From Phormidesmidales cyanobacterium (GTDB taxonomy: Bacteria > Cyanobacteriota > Cyanobacteriia > Phormidesmidales > Phormidesmidaceae), in contig JBBSOB010000001.1 in assembly GCA_038260205.1 (NCBI GenBank), forward strand, positions 85-64,084: 64,000 nt of DNA. Reading direction: 5' to 3'. A model generated the notes under the pieces. It worked only from the letters and a program-made list of their open reading frames with translations, did no database searches and was not told the origin of the DNA. Below, in pieces: positions 133-29,825 of the stretch (within the stretch, counting starts at the first letter, position 1; every line of letters starts with the position of its first letter). Made by a program: the position numbers and the translations under genes.

Positions 133-1944
133 ATGAGTCCTCTGATTCTCGAAGGCCGCTTTGAAATTGAAGAGCAGATCAGCCGTACGGATTTTATGGC
201 CGTGTATTTAGCGCGCGATCGCCATTATCTGCATCGCCCTCACTGCATCGTCAAGTCGATTAACTACCGACAGGCCAACATGCGCCACCGCATCGAGCGC
301 GAGGTGCATACGCTAGAGCTGCTAGGCGCACATCCCCAAATTCCTAACGTGCTGGCCTACTTTCATACCGATCATCAGACAGATCAGTCGTCGAACGATG
401 AGGAGCAAGTATTCTACATTGTTCAATCCTGGCTAGGCGGACACCCGATTAGTCGAGAAATTTCTGTCGGTCGCCCGCTGAGCGAAGGCTACGTTAGCAA
501 GCTGTTAAAAGACGTGCTGGTGCCGCTCGTATGCGTTCACGAGCAGGGCGTTGTCCATCAAAACCTGCATCCACAGCATTTAATTCGCCGCGATACCGAC
601 GGCCAGATTTTTTTAACTGAGTTTGGCACCCTTCCCAAGCTAGCTAGAAGTACCGTCGACGAATCCGGGGCGCTCACTAGCAGCGTTCCCATCAGCCCTC
701 AGCCCTACAGCGCTCCCGAACTACTTCAGCAAAACCCGCAGCCCGCCAGCGACCTCTATTCGCTGGGCCTAATTGCCATCGAAGCGCTCACCGGCCTGCA
801 CCACCAAGACTTAGACTTCGATCCGGTGAAGGGGTTGCTCTGGCGAGAACATGTTACGCATGGCGAAGGCATTGATGGCCAGGCGAGTCGATCGCTAGCA
901 GAATTTATTGACCGGTTGGTGCGGCATGATTGGCGCGATCGCTTTGAACAGGCCCAAGACGCGCTCTCGCAGCTAAAAGTAGTGCGCGATCGCCATCAAA
1001 TAGCCCAAGACAGTCGCTTTCCCACCGTAGTCGCGGCCCCTGGCAAACAGGCGACCAGCTTCGGCCGAACCACCCAAACGACCAATCTAGAAACCACGGC
1101 CCTGACCGCCTGGCCCCACGCCGCCGCCAAAACCCGACAGAATAACCGGCAGAATAATCGGCAAAACAACCTTCCCTATCCGCTGAACTTGGCCGTGGGT
1201 GGCCCCAAATCTGCGACTGAAACCGTTAGCCATCTCTCTCACCGCTATTCCTACGGCAACAGCCAAAAGACCAACCCTTATCTCGTGAAGTGGGCCATCG
1301 GCAGCGTTGCGGTTTTGATCGCCCTCGGCATCGGCGTTAAAACCTATCGCTGGGGAGAATACCGCATCAGTCGTCTGCCCCAAAGCTGGAGCGATTGGGC
1401 CGCCCCTTCTAGCCAATCCGCTTATCCAGCCGCCGACGCTGCGCAGCTTGTGCCGCTGTTTTTGGGAGACAGCAGCCTCTTACTCCAGCCCGCTGCGGCG
1501 ACTGCTTACTGGCAAATGTCTGCTGCTGCTGCCGCTGATGGCATCCAGCTATATGCACTGTCTGGCTACCGCAGCGAACCAGAAGCGCCGCCGCCTAGTT
1601 CTATAGATACCCAAGATGCGCAAAGACAGGCCCAAGAACAGGCCCAAGATCAGGAGCAGGCCCAGCAAGATGCCAAAGAAAGCGCCCGTAACGCCGCCGA
1701 CTATCACACCGGCTATGCGCTAGACATTGGCGGCGCATCCGAAAGCACCGACCGTCAGCTCTCGTTTGCCAAAACGGAGGACTACAAGTGGCTAACCAAC
1801 AACGCCAAGCTATATGGCTTTGAGCTATCTACCACCGCCTCACCGCTTAAGCGAGGACTCTTAGGAGCTGCCTCAGATCAGCCCTGGCACTGGCGCTATG
1901 TGGGAGATGCAGCTAGCCAGGCAGTTTTTGCCCCTAATAAATAG
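133..1944 (+). CDS. Membrane protein: N-terminal Ser/Thr pseudokinase, one TM helix, C-terminal VanY/M15B D,D-carboxypeptidase-like domain with degenerate active site
   Basis: Kinase scaffold motifs IVK, REVHTL..HPQIP, YSAPE and SDLYSLG are present, but the catalytic loop reads HQNLHPQH and DFG reads EFG. TM segment WAIGSVAVLIALGIGV. C-terminal SGYRS, YHTGYALDIG and QPWHWRY resemble VanY SGYRS, EHxTGxAxD and EPWHWRY. Confidence 0.85.
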   Translation: MSPLILEGRFEIEEQISRTDFMAVYLARDRHYLHRPHCIVKSINYRQANMRHRIEREVHTLELLGAHPQIPNVLAYFHTDHQTDQSSNDEEQVFYIVQSWLGGHPISREISVGRPLSEGYVSKLLKDVLVPLVCVHEQGVVHQNLHPQHLIRRDTDGQIFLTEFGTLPKLARSTVDESGALTSSVPISPQPYSAPELLQQNPQPASDLYSLGLIAIEALTGLHHQDLDFDPVKGLLWREHVTHGEGIDGQASRSLAEFIDRLVRHDWRDRFEQAQDALSQLKVVRDRHQIAQDSRFPTVVAAPGKQATSFGRTTQTTNLETTALTAWPHAAAKTRQNNRQNNRQNNLPYPLNLAVGGPKSATETVSHLSHRYSYGNSQKTNPYLVKWAIGSVAVLIALGIGVKTYRWGEYRISRLPQSWSDWAAPSSQSAYPAADAAQLVPLFLGDSSLLLQPAAATAYWQMSAAAAADGIQLYALSGYRSEPEAPPPSSIDTQDAQRQAQEQAQDQEQAQQDAKESARNAADYHTGYALDIGGASESTDRQLSFAKTEDYKWLTNNAKLYGFELSTTASPLKRGLLGAASDQPWHWRYVGDAASQAVFAPNK

Positions 1945-1966
1945 CTGACAGTGGCCCTCGACTGGT

Positions 1967-2034
1967 CAGTTTTATCAGATCAGTTTTGTCAGATCAGTTT
2001 TGTCAGATCAGTTCTGCCAGGTCAGTTCTGCCAA
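1967..2034 (+). repeat. Tandem 14-bp repeat, about 5 copies (CAGTTYTRYCAGRT)
   Basis: CAGTTTTATCAGAT, CAGTTTTGTCAGAT x2, CAGTTCTGCCAGGT, CAGTTCTGCCAA read directly between the kinase-like gene and the P450. Confidence 0.9.
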
Positions 2035-2066
2035 TAGAGTAAAAAACAACCCATTAAGGTGCCATT

Positions 2067-3548
2067 ATGACAAGTGCGATCGCCCAAAAACCGACCCTAA
2101 CCGTCCCTGGCCCTCCCCCTACGCCACTTCTAGGTGCAGCTCCCAACCTTCTCCGGTTCGCCAAAGACCCCATTGCCTACACGCGCCAGCTATTCGAGAA
2201 GTACGGCAATGTAGTTTCCTTGGTAGAAGGAGGCGGCACCCGGCTCTATTCTCACTATCCAGATTGTCCCGGCACCGTGTTTGCCTGTGGCCCCGAGGTG
2301 GTGCGTCAGGTCGCAACCCAGCCAGATGTTTTCTACAAATGTCCGCTTACTGGCCCGCTGTATCGCTTTCGCCATGAGTCGGCGCGGGCCAAGCCGCTAA
2401 ATCACTTTTTGGTGGGCCTCTTTGGCGACAACGAAGCGGCGCATAAGAAACAGCGCAAGCTAATGATGCCAGCCTTTCACCATCAGCGATTGGGCAGCTA
2501 CTTGCAAGATATGGTGGCCATCACCGCAGATGAATTGGACAAGTTGGGAGTGGGGCAGGTGCAGGATCTAGCAGCCACAATGCAACAGGTGACGCTGCGA
2601 ATTGCGGCCAAGTCTCTTCTTGGGGAAGATATTGGCCCAGAAGGCGCGAGCGCGGGAGAGATATTACATGCGGCCTTAGATATTCAGGGCAGCTTGGCGA
2701 TGGAATTTCTGCGGTATGATTTGCCAGGACTACCGTGGCGTCGCTATTTGAATCTAGTGGCAAAGTACGAGCAGTCGATGAAAGCGCTGTTGGATGCTAA
2801 AAGGGCGCGAGGATGCGACGAGCCTGATGTGCTCTCTATGCTGATGCAGGTGCAAGATGAGGAAACGCAAGAAAAGTTAAGCGAGGAAGAGTTGCTAGGT
2901 CATTTGGGCGTGATTTTTATTGCGGGTCATGATACCAGCGCCAATGCACTGACTTGGACATTATTTTTACTCTCTCAGCATCCGCAGATTATGGCCGATT
3001 TATTAGATGAACTAGAGGGCGTTTTGCAAGGAGATGCGCCAAATTTAGAACAACTTAAAAGCTTGCCGCTGCTAGAGCGCGTGATAAAAGAGAGTATGCG
3101 AGTGCTTGCGCCTGTGCCCTGGAATGCTCGGGTTACCGCTAAACCTACTGAGCTAGGTGGCTATAGTCTGCCGACCGGGACGGAAGTGTTGGTTAGCATT
3201 GCTCAAACGCATCACATGAGCGATTTGTACCCAAACCCAGCGTCTTTTGACCCAAGTCGGTGGGAGACGATTACGCCGACAGCTTACGAGTCCAATCCGT
3301 TTAGCGCGGGGCCTCGGGTTGGTATTGGTGCGGGCGGTGCGAGGTGGGAGATGAACATTATGTTGGCGATGCTGCTACAGCGATACCGGCTGGAGTTTGT
3401 GCCTGAGAACCCAATAGACCGCGCGGGAACGATTGTGATGCGGCCTAAGCATGGCATGTCGATGAGGGTGCATAAGCAGGATCGTCAGTTTGATGCGGGC
3501 GTGGGTGCGGTGCAGGGAAATATTCGCGATATGGTGAATTTGCCTTAG
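2067..3548 (+). CDS. Cytochrome P450 (heme-ligand Cys codon reads GGT/Gly in this sequence)
   Basis: PGPPPTP hinge, I-helix IAGHDTSA, K-helix KESMR (ExxR), FDPSRW meander, and heme loop FSAGPRVGIG (canonical FxxGxRxCxG). Confidence 0.9.
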   Translation: MTSAIAQKPTLTVPGPPPTPLLGAAPNLLRFAKDPIAYTRQLFEKYGNVVSLVEGGGTRLYSHYPDCPGTVFACGPEVVRQVATQPDVFYKCPLTGPLYRFRHESARAKPLNHFLVGLFGDNEAAHKKQRKLMMPAFHHQRLGSYLQDMVAITADELDKLGVGQVQDLAATMQQVTLRIAAKSLLGEDIGPEGASAGEILHAALDIQGSLAMEFLRYDLPGLPWRRYLNLVAKYEQSMKALLDAKRARGCDEPDVLSMLMQVQDEETQEKLSEEELLGHLGVIFIAGHDTSANALTWTLFLLSQHPQIMADLLDELEGVLQGDAPNLEQLKSLPLLERVIKESMRVLAPVPWNARVTAKPTELGGYSLPTGTEVLVSIAQTHHMSDLYPNPASFDPSRWETITPTAYESNPFSAGPRVGIGAGGARWEMNIMLAMLLQRYRLEFVPENPIDRAGTIVMRPKHGMSMRVHKQDRQFDAGVGAVQGNIRDMVNLP

Positions 3549-3738: not shown

Positions 3739-5280
3739 TTAGTGAGGTGCGATCGCTCTTCTCTCACCCAGCCGCTTCAGGCCACGAGCCAACCGACTCA
3801 GCAGTATGAGCAGCACCACTATTTGCAAAGCCCAGCCAATGCCAATACCCAACGCCGCCGATTCTACGCCCGACTGCTTAGCAACGCCCAACGGCAGACC
3901 AAAGAATGTCCAAATCGCCATTTCAGCCGCGGTCATAGAGCCATCCATGCCGATATTGAGAACGCTCAAAAAGATCGGTGGGACAACGGCTATGGTCGCC
4001 ACGGTGCCGACGGCCCACACAAAAGGCGCTCTTAGCTTTGAGCCGAAAATAAGCTGCACAATGGTGGCGTAAATTAAGGCGCAGGTGCCCAAGCTCAGCG
4101 CCGCTAATATCAACGGCAAAACCGAGATCTCTTGGCCTCTATCGACGATTAAAATCCAGGGCACAATCAGCGCACCGGCGATCGCCGCACTAATGAAAAT
4201 AGAGAATACAGAAGGGCTGTTGTCGTTCCATATCCAGTCGGGGATGCTGCCGCCTCGCGCCCGGCTCCAGTCGATCAGGGTTTGTCGGGTAGGAGCGATC
4301 GCGAAAATTAGCAAGAAGGCGATTCCCACATTCAGCGCAAACGCTGCTATAGCAAAGCCAAAAACGCGGTCTCCAGTCGATGCGAACAAATCGCTTTGAA
4401 AGAAACCCCACAGCAGCACATTCAGGTAAGCCACTATGACGTAGCTAATGCGTTTGCTTAGCAGCGTTGCCTGCGGAATTCGAAACGTTCGCAGCAGCAC
4501 CCGCCAGGTTAAAAATGTACCAATGGCCAAATTACCCAGCGTAAACAAATGCGCGATTATCAAGTTACCGACAATCGGTAAGTACAGCCATTGCACCAAC
4601 CGATCCGGCTGCGATCCTGAATAAAACCCTGTAGGCAGCGCCGAATGCCCCTGAAATCCCCACCAGGTAGCAAACGAATTCCAGGTCATAAATATCGGTG
4701 TAATAGCAATTAGGGCCAATATTGCAAAGGCGATCGCGTTCAACGCCTGCTGCTTCCCAAACGGCGAAGCACTCCCCACAAAGCCAAACAGCAGCGCCAG
4801 CGTATATACAAACGCCGTACCAAACGTCAGCAAGACGTAATAGCTGATAAACCACAACACCGAAACGTCGCCCAACAAGCCCGAAATGATATGCAGCGGC
4901 ACCGCCGTCAGAGCCAAAATGGCAGGCAGCAGCGGAACGCCCAGCAGCTTACCCAGCAAAATTTCCTGCGCCGGACGCGGGCTAAGCCGAATAAAATTCA
5001 GCGTCCCCGTTCTATCTTCTTTCGACAGATCGTCAACAATATAAAACCCGCCCAGCACAAACAGCGCGTAGGGCATCATCCAGCTCAGCGCCTGACAAAC
5101 ATAGCGCTGGTCTGCGGGCACAATTTCGCCGCCGAGTCCTGCGATTGAAATGTACAGCAGAAACTGAACAATGAGTGAAAGGGCGATCGCCGCAATTACA
5201 CTACGAGACTTGAGTCGACCCCGGCATTCTCTCAAAAATTGCGGGTTACGCTTACCAATCCGGTCAGTCCATTGAGTCAT
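3739..5280 (-). CDS. ABC-2 type exporter permease, multi-TM
   Basis: 513 aa with many hydrophobic helices, an EDRTGTLNFIRLSP..ILLGKLLG motif typical of ABC-2 permeases, directly downstream of an ABC ATPase. Confidence 0.8.
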   Translation of the reverse strand: MTQWTDRIGKRNPQFLRECRGRLKSRSVIAAIALSLIVQFLLYISIAGLGGEIVPADQRYVCQALSWMMPYALFVLGGFYIVDDLSKEDRTGTLNFIRLSPRPAQEILLGKLLGVPLLPAILALTAVPLHIISGLLGDVSVLWFISYYVLLTFGTAFVYTLALLFGFVGSASPFGKQQALNAIAFAILALIAITPIFMTWNSFATWWGFQGHSALPTGFYSGSQPDRLVQWLYLPIVGNLIIAHLFTLGNLAIGTFLTWRVLLRTFRIPQATLLSKRISYVIVAYLNVLLWGFFQSDLFASTGDRVFGFAIAAFALNVGIAFLLIFAIAPTRQTLIDWSRARGGSIPDWIWNDNSPSVFSIFISAAIAGALIVPWILIVDRGQEISVLPLILAALSLGTCALIYATIVQLIFGSKLRAPFVWAVGTVATIAVVPPIFLSVLNIGMDGSMTAAEMAIWTFFGLPLGVAKQSGVESAALGIGIGWALQIVVLLILLSRLARGLKRLGERRAIAPH

Positions 5281-5339
5281 AATGATACGAGATAAGTTTC
5301 ACGAGATAAATTTCAATAGTTGCTAGTCTCTCCATCCCT

Positions 5340-6302
5340 TTAAGCCGTCTGCTTATACCCTAGCCGCATAAAGATATCTTCCAAACTCTCCTGCGTATAA
5401 TGAAACTCACTAATTCGAACGCCCTCTTGCACCAGCACTCGCAGCAAATCCGCCGCCGCTTCCTCCGACCCCGAAAAAGTTACGCCCAGCTTCCCAGACT
5501 CTCCTAGCCGCCCTCTCTCAATGCGCTCATATTTCTCCACCAGCGGATGCTCCTGCAAAAAGATCTCAATCGTCGACTGCTCACCCAATACGCCAATTAG
5601 CAGCCGCTGCCCCTCTTTTTTATAGAGCGAATCTAGCCTACCGCTTTCCACCAACCGGCCTTGCTCCATAATGCCAATGTTGGAACAAAAGTCTTCCAAA
5701 TCGCTGAGAATATGCGAAGAAATCAGAATCGTCATACCCTCCGCCTGCAAGCGCTTAATCGTTTTGCAATATTCCACGCGAGCAATTGGATCTAAACCCG
5801 AAACCGGCTCATCTAACAACAACAGCTTAGGCCGATGAATGACCGTACGCGCCAAACTCAGCCGCTGCTTCATCCCCCGCGAAAGACTGCCAATTAGGCT
5901 GTTTCGCTTATTCTCTAGCTGCACTAGCGCCAAAACATCGCCAATTCGCGGATGCAGCGCCGCAGGTTCGAGATAATAGAGCTGACCAAAATATTCTAAA
6001 TACTGCTGCACCGTCAGGTCGTCGTACAGCGGAAAATCGTCCGGCAAGTAGCCAATGCGTCTTTTAATCTCTGGGTTGGGCTGAGCGCGAATGACTGGCT
6101 TGCCGTCGATATAAATCTCGCCCACCGTCGGATTATCGGCCATTGCCAGCAGCCGTATCAGCGTGGTTTTGCCTGCGCCGTTGGGGCCAATGAGTCCGTA
6201 TACCTCGCCCTCACGGACTTGCAAACTCACTTCGCTGACTGCCGCATAGTCATCAAACTGCTTAGTGAGCTGGTGGGTCGAAATGACAAGATTATCGGTC
6301 AT
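5340..6302 (-). CDS. ABC transporter ATP-binding protein
   Basis: Walker A GPNGAGKTT, signature LSRGMKQ, Walker B LLLDEP, H-loop SSH. Confidence 0.95.
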   Translation of the reverse strand: MTDNLVISTHQLTKQFDDYAAVSEVSLQVREGEVYGLIGPNGAGKTTLIRLLAMADNPTVGEIYIDGKPVIRAQPNPEIKRRIGYLPDDFPLYDDLTVQQYLEYFGQLYYLEPAALHPRIGDVLALVQLENKRNSLIGSLSRGMKQRLSLARTVIHRPKLLLLDEPVSGLDPIARVEYCKTIKRLQAEGMTILISSHILSDLEDFCSNIGIMEQGRLVESGRLDSLYKKEGQRLLIGVLGEQSTIEIFLQEHPLVEKYERIERGRLGESGKLGVTFSGSEEAAADLLRVLVQEGVRISEFHYTQESLEDIFMRLGYKQTA

Positions 6303-6600
6303 AAGTCTTTCCCAAGGTGGCTGAATACAGCGCGAACGCTGATATTGACGGAAGTATACTCAATTCGACGCGAATGCTTCAATTGCAGTCTAGGGGCTTA
6401 CCTTACCGGGGATTGAGACGAAATGCTATAGGTCTGCACTCTGCTACCCAGTGGCGGCGGCTTTGCTGGGCTTTTGGCCGAGGCGATCGCCTTAAGTAAC
6501 TTAACAAAACCTAGCATCAGCGCCAGAGAGTAGAAGAGGCGGTTACGTCCTTTAGGTACGTCATTTAGGTAGGACTTCAAAGCAGCCTGCATACTCACGC

Positions 6601-6630
6601 AAAAAAAAGGAGCGAGCTTTCGCCCACCCC
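6601..6630 (-). terminator. Rho-independent terminator after chlH
   Basis: Minus strand reads GGGGTGGGC-GAAA-GCTCGCTCC-T8, about 35 nt past the chlH stop. Confidence 0.75.
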
Positions 6631-6664
6631 CTTTCATTCAGCATATCGTGGTTAAGGCGATCGC

Positions 6665-9600
6665 CTATTCAACCCCTTCAATCCGATTTTCCACTTCCTC
6701 GTATAGCTCCTGAAGCTTTTCAATGTTCTCATCACTGGTTTCCCAGTAGCCGCGACCATTCACTTCTAGCAGCGTCGTCACCATCCGGCGGAACGAGTTC
6801 GGGTTCAAGTCCATCAGCCGCTTACACATCTCCGGATCGTTAATGAAGGTGTCATTTGTATCCTCATACACCCAGTTATCCACCGCGTCCGCCGTCGCCG
6901 ACCAACCCATCGTGTTCACTAGGCGATTGGAGAGTTCGCGCACGCCTTCATAGCCGTTAGCGAGCATGCCCTCATACCACTTGGGGTTCAGCAGCTTTGT
7001 GCGCGCATCTAGTCGGACGGTTTCAGAGAGCGATCGCACCTGAGCATTCGCTGTCGTCGTATCCGCAATAAACGAAGTCGGCTTCTTGCCGTCCTCTCTC
7101 AAACTCGCCACCACCTTAGTCGGGTCAGAGTCAAAGTAGTGAGATACGTCAGTGAGAGAGATCTCCGAGGAATCCAGGTTTTGGAAAGTTACATCCGCCG
7201 TCTTCAGCGAAGCTTCTAACAATCCGCGAGATTGTTCCATCATCCCCGGATTGTCGCAGTTAAAGGCAAAAGACTTCCGCGCCAAATACATATCGCGCAG
7301 TTCTTGCTCTTCTTCCCAACTGCTGTTCTCCACGGCCAAATTCACGTTCGCCGCATAAGATCCCGACGCATTCGAGAAAATTCTCGTCGCCGCATCGCGC
7401 AAAGACAGGCCAAACTCTTCAGCTTGATCAATCGCATGTTTGCGCACAAAGTTCATTTCCAAAGGCTCCTCAGCCTCAGCCGCCATTTTCACCGCCCGAT
7501 CTAGCAGCGCCATCTGATTTACAAACAAATCGCGGAACACGCCCGAACAGTTAATCACAATGTCAATTCGAGGCCGACCCAATTCCTCTAAAGAAATCAG
7601 CTCCAGCTTGTTCATCCGACCTAGCGAATCTGGCACCGGCTTCACGCCGACAAACCACATCATCTGAGCCAAAGACTCACCGTACGTTTTGATATTGTCC
7701 GTACCCCAAAGCACGGTCGCAATCGTCTCCGGATAAGCGCCGTCGTTTTCAGCTCTTTGTCGATCCAACAGGCGATCTACCACAATTTTGGCAGATTGCA
7801 CCGCCGCCGAAGTCGGAATAGACTGCGGATCGAGCGCATGCATGTTTTTACCCGTTGGCAAGACATCCGGGTTGCGGATCGGATCGCCACCAGGGCCAGG
7901 CAGAATGTACTCGCCGTCTAGCGCGCTCAGCAAAGAGTCCAGTTCGTTATCGGCCACTACCTGCTTCAGGCAATATTGCAAAAACTCAAACAGCGGCTTT
8001 AGCGAATCGTTCTCGACTTTGGTGTAGCCCGCCTCGTGCAGCGCCTTTGTCCAGGGGTCTTTCGAGCCGCCAAAGTTGAACATAGAAAGCATCGACTTCT
8101 TAGAAATCCGGCCTTCTTCGTCCATCTGTTGCTCTACCATCGCAGTCACAGCGGTGCGAATGGCCGCGTTGATGTCGTATAAGAGCTGTACGTCTTCTAA
8201 GTTGCCGCGATCGCTGTTGTAATAAATCTCGTCAATATCGCGACCCAAACTCTCCGCCACAATCCGCTGCAAGCTCTTCTGTTCTTCTTCAGCGCGATCC
8301 AAAGCAGAGATATTGACTAGCGTTGCGATCGCCTCTTCCGCAGTCGGCGGCTTACCCACCACATGCAGCCCGCAAGGCAACAGCCGAGACTCAATCTCCA
8401 TCAATTTGATGTAGACCTTACCGACTAACGTATCGCGCTCTTCTTTACTCAAGCCGCCCGCATCTTCCGCCGGCAATTCAATATCCTTATCCAGGTTGAC
8501 CTGTCGCGCCTTCTCAATGATCGCATTCACAATCGGCAGGCCGCGACCGCCCTCTTTCAACGTCTGATAAGACCCAATTAGCTCGCTCAGCTCTTTCAGG
8601 CCCTTATACAAGCCCGCATTCTCAGCGGGCGGCGTCAAATAGCTAATCGTAGACGCATAGCCTCGACGCTTCGCAATCGTCGCCTCGGAAGGGTTATTTG
8701 CCGCGTAGTAATACAGGTTGGGCGTATTGCCAATTAGGTTGTCGGGGTAGCACTTCCCAGACATTCCCATCTGCTTACCGGGCATAAATTCTAGCGAGCC
8801 GTGCGTCCCAAAGTGCAGCACCGCATCCGCCTTCCAAATTTTCTCCAGGTAAGTGTAATAAGCCGCAAACCCGTGGTGTGGACTCGCCGACCGGGAGAAC
8901 AGCAGTCTCATCGGATCGCCCTCGTAGCCGAACGTGGGCTGCACACCAATAAACACGTTGCCAAAGGTCTTGCCGTAAACCAACAGGTTTTGGCCGTCTG
9001 TATTGAGCTGTCCTGGCGGTGGCCCCCAGTTCTCTTCTAGTCGCTCAGAATAAGGCGTCAGTTCCTCATATTCTGCTACCGACATCTTATGCGCAATGTT
9101 CAAGTTAGGGCTGTTGAACTGCGCCCGCGCATCGTGAATTACGGCCTGCATCAGCGCTTCAGGCGTTTCGGGCATATCCTCAATGGTGTAGCCCTTTTTC
9201 TGCATCTCTTCCATCACGCGATAGATAGAGCCAAACACGTTCAAATAAGCCGCTGTACCCACGTTGCCTTTATCCGGCGGAAAGCTAAATACCGTGATTG
9301 CCAGCTTTTTGTCTATTCTGGGCAGTTTGCGCAACCGTGCCCATTTTAGCGATCGCGTCGAAATTGCCTCAACCCGGTCTTGCAGCGTAATCGCCCGACC
9401 GGTCATGCCATCGCGACCCGACATAATAATCGGCTCAATCGCCCCGTCCAGCTCAGGAATCGCCATTTGCAGCGCCACCTGAATTGGGTGTAGGCCCAGG
9501 TCACTCGCTTCCCACTCTTCTGTCGTCTGAAAAACCAGCGGCAAAGAAACCATATAAGGACGGTTCAATCGCTTCAGCGCGTCAATGGCCTTGGGATGAT

Positions 9601-26163: not shown

Positions 26164-26619
26164 ATGGCAGATTGGCTAGAGCATAGCGTCCATGTTGATC
26201 TAGACGTTGCGATTGAAAACGTTTGGCAGCTCTGGTCTGACCTGGAGCAAATGCCCAAATGGATGAAGTGGATCAGCTCAGTAAAAATGTCGCCAGATAA
26301 TCCTCAGCTATCGGAATGGAAGCTAGAAACAGGGGGACTGTCTTTCGCTTGGAAATCGCGCATTGTCAAGAAAATTCCGCTGCAAATTATTCAGTGGGAG
26401 TCGGTCGATGGGCTACCCAACAAAGGAGCCATTCGATTTTACGGGCGCAAAGACGGCAGCAGCACCGTTAAGATGACCGTGGCCTACGCGCTACCGGCAA
26501 TTTTAGCCAAGCTGATGATGAGCAGTTCTTTGGTAGATCGAGTTGTGACCTCAACGCTACAGGCAGATCTAGATCGCTTTCGCGATTATGCAGTGGCGAA
26601 ATATCCTAAGCAGAGTTAA
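26164..26619 (+). CDS. SRPBCC / polyketide cyclase family protein
   Basis: MADWLEHSVHV..WQLWSDLEQMPKWM..WESVDGLPNKGAIRFY, the cyanobacterial SRPBCC pattern. Confidence 0.9.
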   Translation: MADWLEHSVHVDLDVAIENVWQLWSDLEQMPKWMKWISSVKMSPDNPQLSEWKLETGGLSFAWKSRIVKKIPLQIIQWESVDGLPNKGAIRFYGRKDGSSTVKMTVAYALPAILAKLMMSSSLVDRVVTSTLQADLDRFRDYAVAKYPKQS

Positions 26620-26635: not shown

Positions 26636-29224
26636 ATGACCCTATCGCCATACGCCAACGCACAGTCGGGGTTTAGGGCAAAACCCGATCCGGCTGAAGC
26701 TGCTTTGAGAGAGCACAACCTAGCCGCTCTTTTTATCCAGCATCTAGGATGGGAATTGCCGTCTCAAAATGACATCAGGCGAACACCGCCGCCCAAGGCG
26801 CAAGCGCAGTGTGTTCCGATTGCCCGTAGAGGAGACACTGTCGTCTGGCAAGTTCAGCTTGCTGCTAACACAGACTTCACGTCGGCACTCAAAGAGCAGC
26901 TCTACGACGAGATTGCAGGGATCTCTGATCTAGAATTTGCACGGCCTCTCGTAATCTTTGTAGACGCTAGAAACAGCCGCAGTCTCTGGTGTCAGGCAAC
27001 GCATCGACAAGGCTCGATTGAGAGCGCTCTGTACGTTTCGGAGCAGCCAATTGTTCTTTGGAAATTTCGGCTGGAGCGGCTGCAAAAAGAGAATGCTCAA
27101 AGAAAATATCAAAAAAGAACTCAGAACGAGTCTCACCGAGAATCCCAAAGAGAATCCTATAAAGCCTCTGTGCTTTTTCGTTCCGATGGCTCAGGGGCCT
27201 ATTTGCCTTTTCAGGTGCTGCTAGACGATCTGTGTGAAGGAATTACTGGCATTGGCAACATTACTGACTGCCAAAATTATGCGGTTTTGACGTTGCAAAG
27301 ACTGATACTTATTCAGGTGATACAGAAAAAGGGCTGGGTAGATGACGATACATGGTATCTCCAAACTCAGTTTGAAGCAGCGCTACAGTCGCAGCAAAGC
27401 TTCTTCTCAACGCGGTTGCAGCCGCTTTACCGGTGTTTAGCCCTCCCCAAAGTGGAGCGCCCCGTAGCTCTGAATCAGCAGGTCGGAGCTGTGCCTTTTT
27501 TAGGGCATTTTTTTCATACCCACCGGCTAGAGCAAAAGTACGCAAACATCAGCATCGACAATCAACCTTTTGAACAGATTCTGGGCTGGCTGATCGAACA
27601 AACCAGCGCAGATGGACTAAACCTTTGGAGCAGCGGAGCGCTCAGTCATTGTTTAGAGGCGTATTTAGCGAGTCAGTATCTCTCTGAGGAGACGGCAGCA
27701 GAGGCGCTACTGAGTTCTCCAGGGTTAGCAAACTGGATTAGCGATCGCACGCTTAGCCAGCTCGTCATCACCCGAACAAAGGCCATCAGCGATCAAAATC
27801 ATCCAACAGATATTAACGATTTACTCTTTAACGCAGATGCCAAAACCTGTCGCTGTTTAATCCAAGACGTATTACCCAACCTGCGCATTCTCGATCCGGC
27901 CTGCGGCAGCGGTAGTTTACTCGTAGGCCTCTATCAACGGCTCACCGAAATATTCAGCAATCTAATTGGATACAGTCAGCAAAACCAGGATGTGCAGCTC
28001 AAAATCTGGCAGGCGGGACTCGTAGAAGATAGCGATGACAGCCAGAGTCAATTCGCTCAGGCAAATCCCTTGCAGACTGTCCAAAAGCGCATTCTAAAAA
28101 ACATTCTCTATGGCGTCGATATTTCTATGCAGGCCGTGGAATCTACAACATTCCAGCTATTAATGCATACCGTGGCGATCGCGCAGCAGCCCAAAGATAT
28201 TGAACCCTTGGCCGATCTGGCCTTCAATATCCTGGTGGGTAATAGCCTGATTGGCCTAATTGACGTTGACCCAGAGAGATTTGAAAAGGTTTCCCAGGTG
28301 GGCGATCGCCAAGTGCTACAGGGCAGCCTGCTACAGCCTTTAGTGGCCGATAGCTATCAGACGATTTTGGCCGAGAAAAATTTGGCCGTAGAACATTACA
28401 AATCTCGCAATCAGATGCTAGCAGAAGCCAACAACGTTCCGGACTATGCCAGAGCCGCTTTGCTTAAAGAAGATATTTTGCGATTGGATATCAACGCCCA
28501 GCAAAAGTTAGACCAGCTATTGCTCAATCAAATGAGTCATCAGCTGGGCATTCAGTATAAGGTAGCGCAGCTAACCGAGAAACCGCAGCGCCGCCCGCTA
28601 ACGCCAGAAGATATTGATATTTTGCAGCCTTTTCACTGGGGCTACCACTTTAATAAGATTCTTGAAAGGGGCGGGTTTGACAGTGTTGTTTGCAGACCGC
28701 CGCAGGGCGACTTTAAACCAACTGCAACAGAATTTTTACAAAAGTTTCGAGATTTAGCGGCGATCAAAGGGATGAGTGTGCGATCGCTCAAAACCTCAAA
28801 ACAAGCCCTCGCCAAAGGCGATCCAGAAATTGCCGGAGCCTGGCTATTTTACCAAGATCAGTACGCCTACGTGGCTGACTACTTCTATCGCAGCGAGCAA
28901 TACAGGCATCAGAACCCAACGGTGGAAGGAAAAACAGTTAGAAACCGGCTGACAAGAGAAAGGTTATTTGTAGAACAATGTTCTAACCTGTTGGCACCCG
29001 GCGGAATTGGCGCAGTCGTCTCGGCCCAAAAATTTTCGCAACAGCAGAAAGCACAGTCCGTTTATAATTTTTTAAGCGAGCAAGCGATTGTTAAAGAGGC
29101 GGTAGTCAGAGGAGCGGTAGTCAGAGAATTTGTGCCAGGCGCTTCAGAAAAAACAGCCATCGTGACGATATGGCAGAAGAAGGCTGAACCACCCAAAGAG
29201 AATAGCTCTAAAAGAACGCAATGA
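26636..29224 (+). CDS. Eco57I/Type IIG-like N6-adenine DNA methyltransferase homologue with degenerate catalytic motif IV
   Basis: SAM-binding motif I ILDPACGSGSLL, YGVDI, NILVGNSLIG, PFHW..F, motif IV GFDSVVCRPPQ (canonical FDxVIGNPPY), LFVEQCSNLLAPGG. The ORF ends soon afterwards. Likely start is ATG at 26636. Confidence 0.8.
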   Translation: MTLSPYANAQSGFRAKPDPAEAALREHNLAALFIQHLGWELPSQNDIRRTPPPKAQAQCVPIARRGDTVVWQVQLAANTDFTSALKEQLYDEIAGISDLEFARPLVIFVDARNSRSLWCQATHRQGSIESALYVSEQPIVLWKFRLERLQKENAQRKYQKRTQNESHRESQRESYKASVLFRSDGSGAYLPFQVLLDDLCEGITGIGNITDCQNYAVLTLQRLILIQVIQKKGWVDDDTWYLQTQFEAALQSQQSFFSTRLQPLYRCLALPKVERPVALNQQVGAVPFLGHFFHTHRLEQKYANISIDNQPFEQILGWLIEQTSADGLNLWSSGALSHCLEAYLASQYLSEETAAEALLSSPGLANWISDRTLSQLVITRTKAISDQNHPTDINDLLFNADAKTCRCLIQDVLPNLRILDPACGSGSLLVGLYQRLTEIFSNLIGYSQQNQDVQLKIWQAGLVEDSDDSQSQFAQANPLQTVQKRILKNILYGVDISMQAVESTTFQLLMHTVAIAQQPKDIEPLADLAFNILVGNSLIGLIDVDPERFEKVSQVGDRQVLQGSLLQPLVADSYQTILAEKNLAVEHYKSRNQMLAEANNVPDYARAALLKEDILRLDINAQQKLDQLLLNQMSHQLGIQYKVAQLTEKPQRRPLTPEDIDILQPFHWGYHFNKILERGGFDSVVCRPPQGDFKPTATEFLQKFRDLAAIKGMSVRSLKTSKQALAKGDPEIAGAWLFYQDQYAYVADYFYRSEQYRHQNPTVEGKTVRNRLTRERLFVEQCSNLLAPGGIGAVVSAQKFSQQQKAQSVYNFLSEQAIVKEAVVRGAVVREFVPGASEKTAIVTIWQKKAEPPKENSSKRTQ

Positions 29225-29825
29225 GCCGATCTACTTGAAAGAACAACGCTTCTTTACTCTGAGTGTTATCTAATACATAATCTGCTCTTTTGCATTTTTC
29301 GTCCAAACTCATCTGGGCCTCTATTCGAGCCTGGGCCTGACTCTTTGTCAGCTGATTTCGATGCATTAGCCGAGCGAGTTGCTGCGCTGAAGAACAAACA
29401 ACCACCCAGGTTTCGCTAACTAGATGGGTTAGGTTGGCCTCAAAGAGCAGTGGAATAGAATATATCAAAGTCTGATGGGCGGGCAGCGCGTTTGTTTCCG
29501 CGCTGAATCTGGCGCGAACATAGGGGTGAATTTGTTGTTCTACCCACTGTCGTTCGTCTAGCTGGCTAAAGATAATTTTGCCGAGATAGGCCCGATTGAG
29601 GCTACCGTCTAGCAGCAAACTGTCGGGGCCGTAGCGATCGCGCACCCGCTCCAAAATCTCACTGCCTTTAGCTACCGCCTCTCTTGAAAACACATCAGCA
29701 TCTAGCACCGGCAGCTCGTATCGACGAGCCAAATAGTCCGAAACCGTACTTTTTCCTGTTGCAATCCCCCCCGTCAGACCAATAATTCGTCTAGAAACAG
29801 CCTCATCTTTTACGACTTTGCCCAT
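29208..29825 (-). CDS. coaE: Dephospho-CoA kinase
   Basis: IIGLTGGIATGKSTV, LDAD, LNRAYLGKIIF, IHPYVR, PLLFE. Confidence 0.95.
   Translation of the reverse strand: MGKVVKDEAVSRRIIGLTGGIATGKSTVSDYLARRYELPVLDADVFSREAVAKGSEILERVRDRYGPDSLLLDGSLNRAYLGKIIFSQLDERQWVEQQIHPYVRARFSAETNALPAHQTLIYSIPLLFEANLTHLVSETWVVVCSSAQQLARLMHRNQLTKSQAQARIEAQMSLDEKCKRADYVLDNTQSKEALFFQVDRLIAFF

Follow-up and report, generated by a model that had tools for sequence, protein, structure and literature searches.

The locus described here raises the question of what role is left to a DNA methyltransferase homologue that has lost its catalytic motifs and lies among the housekeeping genes of a cyanobacterium. The gene, here called pMT, occupies positions 26636-29224 (+ strand) of a 64,000-nucleotide stretch (hereafter the window) of contig JBBSOB010000001.1 from a Phormidesmidales cyanobacterium. 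It is open throughout and encodes an 862-aa protein that profile searches, an AlphaFold2 model and Foldseek identified as a catalytically degenerate homologue of the Eco57I/Type IIG methyltransferases. The evidence argues, with moderate confidence, for a descendant of a Type IIG-like methyltransferase that no longer methylates DNA and has been exapted as a non-catalytic partner of the SRPBCC-domain protein encoded directly upstream. That pMT is dead for DNA methylation and exapted appears highly probable; the functional partnership with the SRPBCC protein is advanced tentatively.

Loss of catalytic motifs in pMT and across its family

The predicted protein matched the Pfam Eco57I family (PF07669) above the gathering score (E = 2.7e-7) and the PADLOC model REase_MTase_IIG (PDLC03628) with E = 1.7e-30; the NCBIfam BREX and MADS models matched around motif I only, far under their cut-offs. 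Motif I, the S-adenosylmethionine (SAM)-binding loop, is present as DPACGSG (residues 420-426; 27893-27913, + strand). The motif IV site reads RPPQ (AGA CCG CCG CAG, 28694-28705, + strand), where the relatives have NPPW. Motif X is also degenerate, the sequence EALLSSPGL aligning to AYYTRPEI of longer relatives in columns that are hypervariable, and the YLNGGLF motif of the helical domain has become PFLGHFF. The alignment of pMT to one long relative, P0082 (1138 aa), stopped at approximately P0082 residue 760-800. The latter protein runs 340-380 aa past the end of pMT, and these residues align with C-terminal portions of profiles for Type IIG and Type II methyltransferases, which identifies them as the target-recognition domain missing from pMT. 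A PD-(D/E)xK nuclease motif was not found in the N-terminal domain of pMT, which reads IFVD(110)...SLWCQ without an ExK; D110 varies in the family, and several genera lack the whole domain.

An earlier note on this DNA, made from the letters alone, had described an intact 862-aa frame with motif I kept, RPPQ in place of motif IV, no target-recognition domain and no PD-(D/E)xK motif, all of which agreed with the present analysis. The note's further claim that the Eco57I/Type IIG scaffold is retained held for the family profiles and the fold; it did not extend to motif X and YLNGGLF, which are degenerate as well.

These losses are not peculiar to the window. A clustered-protein search covering 5.8 billion proteins returned about 80 clusters whose members were 760-890 aa long and whose identity ranged from 83% down to 39%; their sources were Phormidesmis, Leptolyngbya foveolarum and allied metagenome-assembled genomes. 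Below these the matches jumped to proteins of 1020-1320 aa, with 30-35% identity, in Microcystis, Microcoleus, Nostoc and Nodularia. The Asn of motif IV was absent from 77 of 79 clustered short proteins and from 50 of 50 sequences taken from genomes across the order, its place being filled by A (30), V (10), R (8), and also Q, C, T, Y, M, H and others. The Asn site thus holds 14 residue types with an entropy of 3.0 bits, which ranks it 70th in variability among 662 sites, within an otherwise rigid block (GGFD..C.PP.G.FKPT) in which the Pro-Pro of motif IV is mostly kept, and the aromatic site of the motif holds 13 residue types. Motif X was AYYTRPEI in the long proteins and not recognisable in the short ones, and YLNGGLF of the long proteins corresponded to PFLGxxF in the short ones. 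The division recurred when 1.84 billion representatives were searched exhaustively with HMMER: the close matches, up to about 860 aa, lacked the Asn, and nearly all others read NPPW or NPPY. Whether the orthologues would mostly carry NPPY had been named as a test in the earlier note, and the answer is no, in support of a domesticated protein.

Because the recognition domain has been lost, the catalytic and aromatic residues vary freely and motif X is gone, the sequences make N6-adenine DNA methylation by pMT very unlikely. The proteins P0044 and P0074, which carry an Asn at motif IV, were considered as surviving active members and rejected, since both lack motif X and NGGLF; their Asn residues look like chance returns.

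At the cofactor site, D420, P421, C423 and G426 of motif I were invariant in 79 of 79 members, motif III retained Asn or Asp in all 79, and the acid of motif II (LYGVD, residues 491-495; 28106-28120, + strand), which corresponds to the ribose-binding residue of M.TaqI, was kept in 67. In the remaining 12 members the acid was replaced by A or G, always together with replacement of A422 of motif I by Y, N, H, D, V, C or G. The sub-clade with this altered SAM pocket, with motifs such as DPYCSSG and LFGVA, was nevertheless under selection, with ratios of nonsynonymous to synonymous substitution rates (dN/dS) of about 0.16-0.18 between its pairs, which argues that the selected function does not everywhere depend on an intact pocket and that SAM binding is not a universal essential feature. 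The N-terminal domain is likewise dispensable, as several genera have versions of 620-700 aa that start at approximately residue 190, directly after the SRPBCC gene.

The 79-member alignment revealed family-specific constraints near the old active site at C686, G691 and T696. Positions 687 and 690, in the substrate-pocket loop, were among the most variable, and the constraints on C686 and T696 failed across the order. The possibility that C686 serves as a new nucleophile of a C5-type methyltransferase was rejected: the residue is C in genus g1 but S, T or A in other genera.

Distribution, phylogeny and selection

Of 151 genomes from the order, sampled at one per species, 143 contained pMT, as did 113 of the 116 rated high-quality; 17 of 18 genera were represented, and the gene was nearly always single-copy. 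Elsewhere in the class, a close homologue was present in 7 of 95 genomes, in each case as an open frame of 1090-1350 aa. A maximum-likelihood (ML) tree grouped every short sequence together, behind a branch that received 100% support in the Shimodaira-Hasegawa-like approximate likelihood ratio test (SH-aLRT); genus g1 was recovered as a clade, and the pMT clade follows the genus labels. The long relatives of Nostoc, Brasilonema, Coleofasciculus and Microcystis were joined across orders by very short branches, as expected for mobile genes. Genus g5, of the same family and represented by two genomes that are 99% complete, has crtQ and the SRPBCC gene (4485-4934 in locus L162, G005:C72:1-12000) followed by an unrelated convergent gene and no pMT, an arrangement that either predates the insertion or reflects later loss of pMT.

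Pairwise dN/dS of pMT was 0.11-0.18 at synonymous divergences (dS) of 0.25-1.4; in the same genome pairs the neighbouring gene coaE gave 0.10-0.26 and cobA/hemD 0.06-0.12. Median values by domain were 0.23 for the N-terminal domain, 0.12 for the helical domain, 0.11 and 0.10 for the two halves of the methyltransferase fold, and 0.06 for the hairpin insertion between them. Since the pairwise values lie in the range of the neighbour coaE, pMT is not a pseudogene. The few matches that contained stop codons had them at the ends of the ORFs or came from draft assemblies. A recent or neutrally evolving pseudogene was therefore rejected on dN/dS and on conservation across the order. The dN/dS check proposed in the earlier note thus came out as purifying selection, and its proposal of a domesticated pseudo-methyltransferase gains support from the family-wide loss of the Asn, from dN/dS and from the conserved position beside the SRPBCC gene.

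Predicted structure

The AlphaFold2 model of pMT, built from an alignment of 95 sequences, was confident (predicted local distance difference test 88.5; predicted template modelling score 0.92). It begins with an alpha/beta domain (residues 19-135; 26690-27040, this and the following segments on the + strand), the least constrained part of the protein. A poorly ordered linker follows (residues 136-188; window 27041-27199), low-complexity, charged (QKENAQRKYQKRTQNESHRESQRESYK), poorly modelled and highly variable in length; in some orthologues the linker or the N-terminal domain holds tandem peptide repeats, such as the TSAQ repeats of P0048. The helical domain, identified from the alignment and the model (residues 189-400; 27200-27835), is that in which NGGLF is degenerate and motif X lost. 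The methyltransferase fold is split by a helical hairpin insertion (residues 546-665; 28271-28630) with helices at 574-597 and 603-636, which ends in PFHWGYHF. The insertion is the most constrained part of pMT, with the highest column conservation, and is also present in the long, active-type relatives. The C-terminal half of the fold (residues 666-850; 28631-29185) contains the motif IV remnant, and by alignment and model no recognition domain lies beyond it, the chain stopping with the last strands of the fold.

A Foldseek search of the PDB returned only gamma-class N6-adenine DNA methyltransferases with helical N-domains, the best matches being BREX PglX, CamA, BsaXI, MmeI, DrdV and LlaGI, with M.TaqI also matched. 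The modelled fold is accordingly that of a gamma-class DNA methyltransferase (class I, Rossmann-like). A sequence search of the PDB with pMT gave weak matches around motif I only.

Linkage to the SRPBCC gene

In the window, the upstream neighbour of pMT is a 151-aa SRPBCC (Polyketide_cyc/START-like) gene at 26164-26619 (+ strand; Pfam PF03364, E = 6.7e-17), whose stop at 26619 lies 16 nt before the pMT start. An alternative pMT start at 26588 would be longer and would run into the SRPBCC gene, and the start at 26636 matches the N-termini of the orthologues (MTLSP...). At the other end the TGA stop (29222-29224) falls inside the convergent dephospho-CoA kinase gene coaE (29208-29825, - strand; Pfam PF01121, E = 7.7e-60), with a 17-nt overlap. 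The G+C content of pMT is unremarkable relative to its flanks, which within about 10 kb encode MoaB, Psb28, an S-layer homology (SLH) protein, SRPBCC, CoaE, CobA/HemD, DnaK, a type 2 NADH dehydrogenase (NDH-2), aspartokinase and a sigma factor; the same interval contained no gene for a restriction (R) or specificity (S) subunit or for a helicase. The spacing, the overlap with coaE, the housekeeping context and the lack of R, S or helicase partners had all been read correctly in the earlier note. A scan for promoters and terminators gave background levels only, with no terminator-like site between the SRPBCC gene and pMT in the window.

Conservation of this arrangement was followed in 107 locus entries from both genome collections, some genomes being entered twice. 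The SRPBCC gene was directly upstream of pMT on the same strand in every locus with upstream DNA. The median distance from its stop to the first plausible pMT start was 24 nt, and the genes overlapped by 4 nt in 13 entries. Downstream, coaE and cobA/hemD lay 3' of pMT in the window's genus and some others, and not in the Leptothoe/PCC 7375 group; the earlier note's SRPBCC-coaE synteny consequently holds across the order on the SRPBCC side and in only part of the order on the coaE side. In at least 11 loci from several genera (e.g. L037, L044, L041, L038 and L034) crtQ, the SRPBCC gene and pMT followed one another on one strand; L037, for example, has crtQ at 4151-5515, the SRPBCC gene at 5523-5948 and pMT at 6133-8463. 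The SRPBCC-pMT pair persisted where the linkage to crtQ or coaE was broken, and as a hypothesis for a linkage this tight and durable, a joint role is the most economical.

The SRPBCC gene is wider in its distribution than pMT, being core in cyanobacteria, with 99 of 101 genomes of the class containing it. Outside the order it lies behind a gene for an amine-oxidase-family protein of about 480 aa, of zeta-carotene desaturase type, and often has a 360-aa alpha/beta hydrolase gene 3' on the same strand, giving a recurrent crtQ-SRPBCC-hydrolase order (L134, L139, L159). In none of the 26 loci from outside the order did pMT follow the SRPBCC gene. The SRPBCC gene is probably of the Slr0941 type, slr0940 being crtQ in Synechocystis. 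Slr0941 is listed as a START-like lipid-binding protein of the cyanoglobule proteome with an Arabidopsis homologue, AT1G02475 (PMC12223511).

The window's genus differed in its carotenoid genes. CrtP, the phytoene desaturase of plants and cyanobacteria (TIGR02731), scored above the cut-off in none of its 16 genomes, compared with nine of nine other cyanobacterial families, and the zeta-carotene desaturase CrtQ was also absent from the 16, the best match having about 25% identity. A bacterial CrtI-family desaturase, at C195:8147-9265 in the window's genome (G000), exceeded the TIGR02734 cut-off in all 16 genomes and in none of the nine other families. From these sequences, this looks like a genus-wide replacement of CrtP and CrtQ by CrtI, a type of replacement known in Gloeobacter.

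Long relatives and other methyltransferases

The nearest relatives of pMT are proteins of 1100-1330 aa that have both NPPW and a recognition domain. They are encoded behind an SNF2-type helicase gene, for which the best PADLOC models are HKD+Snf2, DrmD and BrxH, and a Uma2 nuclease gene. In Coleofasciculus and Nostoc (L120:22-7942, L124:130-7438) these form a block of SNF2 helicase, Uma2 nuclease, sometimes a 231-aa ORF, and then a methyltransferase of 1150-1330 aa. Some block methyltransferases carry a C-terminal Schlafen/AlbA_2 domain or an inserted DUF559, and the blocks are nearly identical across orders. The block is probably an uncharacterised mobile defence system.

Changes at motif IV were also seen among long proteins. 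P0128, a long-type protein of 980 aa from the representative library, retains motif X as AYFTPPEI and the recognition region and reads IITHPPW at motif IV. Its Asn was thus replaced by His independently of the domesticated clade, to which it does not belong. SPPW, SLPW or HPAW stood at this site in a few others. The window's genome also holds an ordinary active-type relative, a canonical Eco57I-type methyltransferase fragment (ORF 493-2079, minus strand; locus L002, G000:C322:4638-5210 region) cut by the contig end. Its sequence includes GNPPY and QPFHWFVEF...GGFDVTIGNPPY, and its C-terminal region comprises about 330 aa.

Proposed history and alternative explanations

Purifying selection, core status and a confident fold together indicate that pMT has a function. 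The ancestor would have been a mobile Type IIG-like N6-adenine DNA methyltransferase, and the simplest history would be a single insertion at the 3' end of the crtQ-SRPBCC operon in an ancestor at or close to the root of the order that includes Phormidesmis, Leptolyngbya PCC 7375 and Leptothoe. The recognition domain, the Asn of NPPW, motif X and NGGLF would then have been lost, and the gene would have passed to vertical inheritance as a single-copy core gene under purifying selection. The SRPBCC-pMT junction would have outlasted the crtQ-SRPBCC junction and all junctions downstream. pMT is presumably co-transcribed with the SRPBCC gene, with translational coupling probable in many species. 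The helical domain, methyltransferase core and hairpin insertion may serve as a scaffold or ligand-binding module, and the SAM pocket may still be occupied in most lineages, by a structural or regulatory ligand. A more specific version makes pMT the dedicated partner of a START-like protein of the Slr0941/AT1G02475 type in the carotenoid and lipid-droplet pathway, the fold sensing SAM or S-adenosylhomocysteine or anchoring a lipid carrier; so detailed a role is speculative and somewhat unlikely.

Several observations weigh against a non-catalytic partner of the SRPBCC protein. About 85% of members keep motifs I, II and III, which would be compatible with methyl transfer to some non-adenine substrate. 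Genus g5 keeps crtQ-SRPBCC without pMT, so that pMT is not required by the SRPBCC protein in all lineages. The position beside the SRPBCC gene may reflect only where pMT happened to insert, frozen since then, and no shared function. The longer family members that were inspected included no SRPBCC-pMT fusion. In net charge and pI, the shared domains do not differ between dead and active-type relatives, so composition gives no sign of lost DNA contact.

The first of these points leads to the strongest competing explanation, in which pMT is still an enzyme acting on a non-adenine, non-DNA substrate. That substrate could be a protein, an RNA or a small molecule of the lipid, prenyl or carotenoid type that the SRPBCC protein presents to it. 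The near-invariance of motif I, the motif II acid in 67 of 79 members and the motif III Asn/Asp in 79 of 79 would fit such an enzyme, as would an operon with a hydrophobic-ligand-binding protein, in many genera joined by zeta-carotene desaturase, and the new constraints at C686, G691 and T696. Motif X, however, which forms part of the cofactor pocket in the gamma class, is hypervariable, pocket positions 687 and 690 are highly variable, C686 and T696 are not kept order-wide, and the 12 members that have lost the ribose-binding acid and A422 remain under purifying selection; we regard this explanation as unlikely. Retention of activity on DNA, by an N6-adenine methyltransferase with a non-canonical motif IV that borrows its specificity from another protein, would account for the preserved fold, motif I and the mostly kept Pro-Pro. 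It is contradicted by the 14 residues at the Asn site and 13 at the aromatic site, by the lack of a recognition domain, a nearby S-subunit gene and motif X, and by the absence of motif X and NGGLF even from the Asn-bearing P0044 and P0074, and is given very little credence.

A role in defence independent of the SRPBCC protein, whether by decoying phage anti-restriction proteins such as the Ocr-like DNA mimics or by regulating or partnering the genome's active methyltransferases, would be in keeping with ancestors that were defence-type Type IIG-like enzymes beside SNF2 helicases, with closest solved structures that include PglX bound to the phage inhibitor Ocr, and with the GNPPY-bearing Eco57I-type methyltransferase with a recognition domain on contig C322 of the window's genome. 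Such a remnant is nonetheless improbable: a core, single-copy, vertically inherited gene with low dN/dS in a housekeeping context is atypical for defence, no defence genes lie near pMT, and the active methyltransferases that might be its partners are variable where pMT is constant. Least credible of all is a decaying pseudogene or functionless selfish remnant; the loss of several catalytic motifs, and of the N-terminal domain in several genera, would be expected of one, but nearly every genome of this order-level clade has an uninterrupted frame, dN/dS is 0.11-0.18 at dS up to 1.4, and the model is confidently folded.

Comparison with known systems

The exapted, non-catalytic protein proposed here can be placed against several known kinds. 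With the Type IIG/IIL enzymes (PF07669; MmeI, DrdV, BsaXI) and its long relatives pMT shares an N-terminal alpha/beta domain, a helical domain and the gamma-class order of the fold. Identity to the long relatives was 32-35% over residues 24-800, including the hairpin insertion and PFHWGYHF, and the Type IIG/IIL structures were matched by Foldseek with the maximal probability (1.00). Unlike those enzymes, pMT has no recognition domain, catalytic Asn, PD-(D/E)xK motif or helicase or nuclease neighbour, its motif X and NGGLF are degenerate, and it is a vertically inherited core gene where the Type IIG/IIL relatives are patchy and mobile.

The best structural matches of pMT, 8c45 and 9ewz, reflect a likeness to PglX (BrxX) of the bacteriophage exclusion (BREX) system, and its motif I region matched both the NCBIfam model BREX_1_MTaseX and the PADLOC model for DrmMI of the defence island system associated with restriction-modification (DISARM). 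The score against the PglX model was, however, 36.7 bits against an NCBIfam cut-off of 500, no brx, pgl or drm genes lie near pMT, and NPPY/W and the C-terminal specificity region are missing. Nor is there a helicase within about 10 kb of pMT, whereas the long relatives have a DrmD/BrxH-like SNF2 helicase upstream.

Methyltransferase-fold pseudoenzymes that are kept as a non-catalytic scaffold or partner are known in METTL14 (EPPL), which acts with METTL3, and DNMT3L, which acts with DNMT3A. They resemble pMT in that selection keeps a methyltransferase fold whose (D/N)PP(Y/F/W) or cofactor site is degenerate, and pMT shows the pseudoenzyme pattern of lost catalytic residues, purifying selection and conservation across species. 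METTL14 and DNMT3L each work with a paralogue that is active, and pMT has no such conserved, linked paralogue; its constant partner gene is that for the SRPBCC lipid-binding protein, and its ancestor was a prokaryotic defence enzyme. The orphan methyltransferases Dam and CcrM are of restriction-modification origin and have become chromosomally fixed and vertically inherited with catalysis and DNA recognition kept, both of which pMT, from its sequence, seems to have lost. pMT joins known kinds, the methyltransferase-fold pseudoenzymes and the domesticated restriction-modification genes, and is not a new category.

Significance

A search of the literature, including that on cyanobacteria and Phormidesmis, found nothing on the pMT family or on a comparable dead Type IIG-derived core gene. 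In public records its members are labelled 'DNA methyltransferase' or 'site-specific DNA-methyltransferase', annotations that would skew inventories of methylomes and defence systems. The usual view of defence genes, including those for restriction-modification, is that they are mobile and turn over fast, and their known domesticated forms, the orphan methyltransferases, stay catalytic. pMT would provide a clean natural case of pseudoenzyme exaptation in bacteria, core across a cyanobacterial order and fixed beside a START-like gene, and gives a starting point for working out what proteins of the Slr0941/AT1G02475 family do. If the proposed partnership is true, the SRPBCC protein and pMT would form a previously unknown two-protein module in which an immune gene has been recruited into pigment and lipid metabolism.

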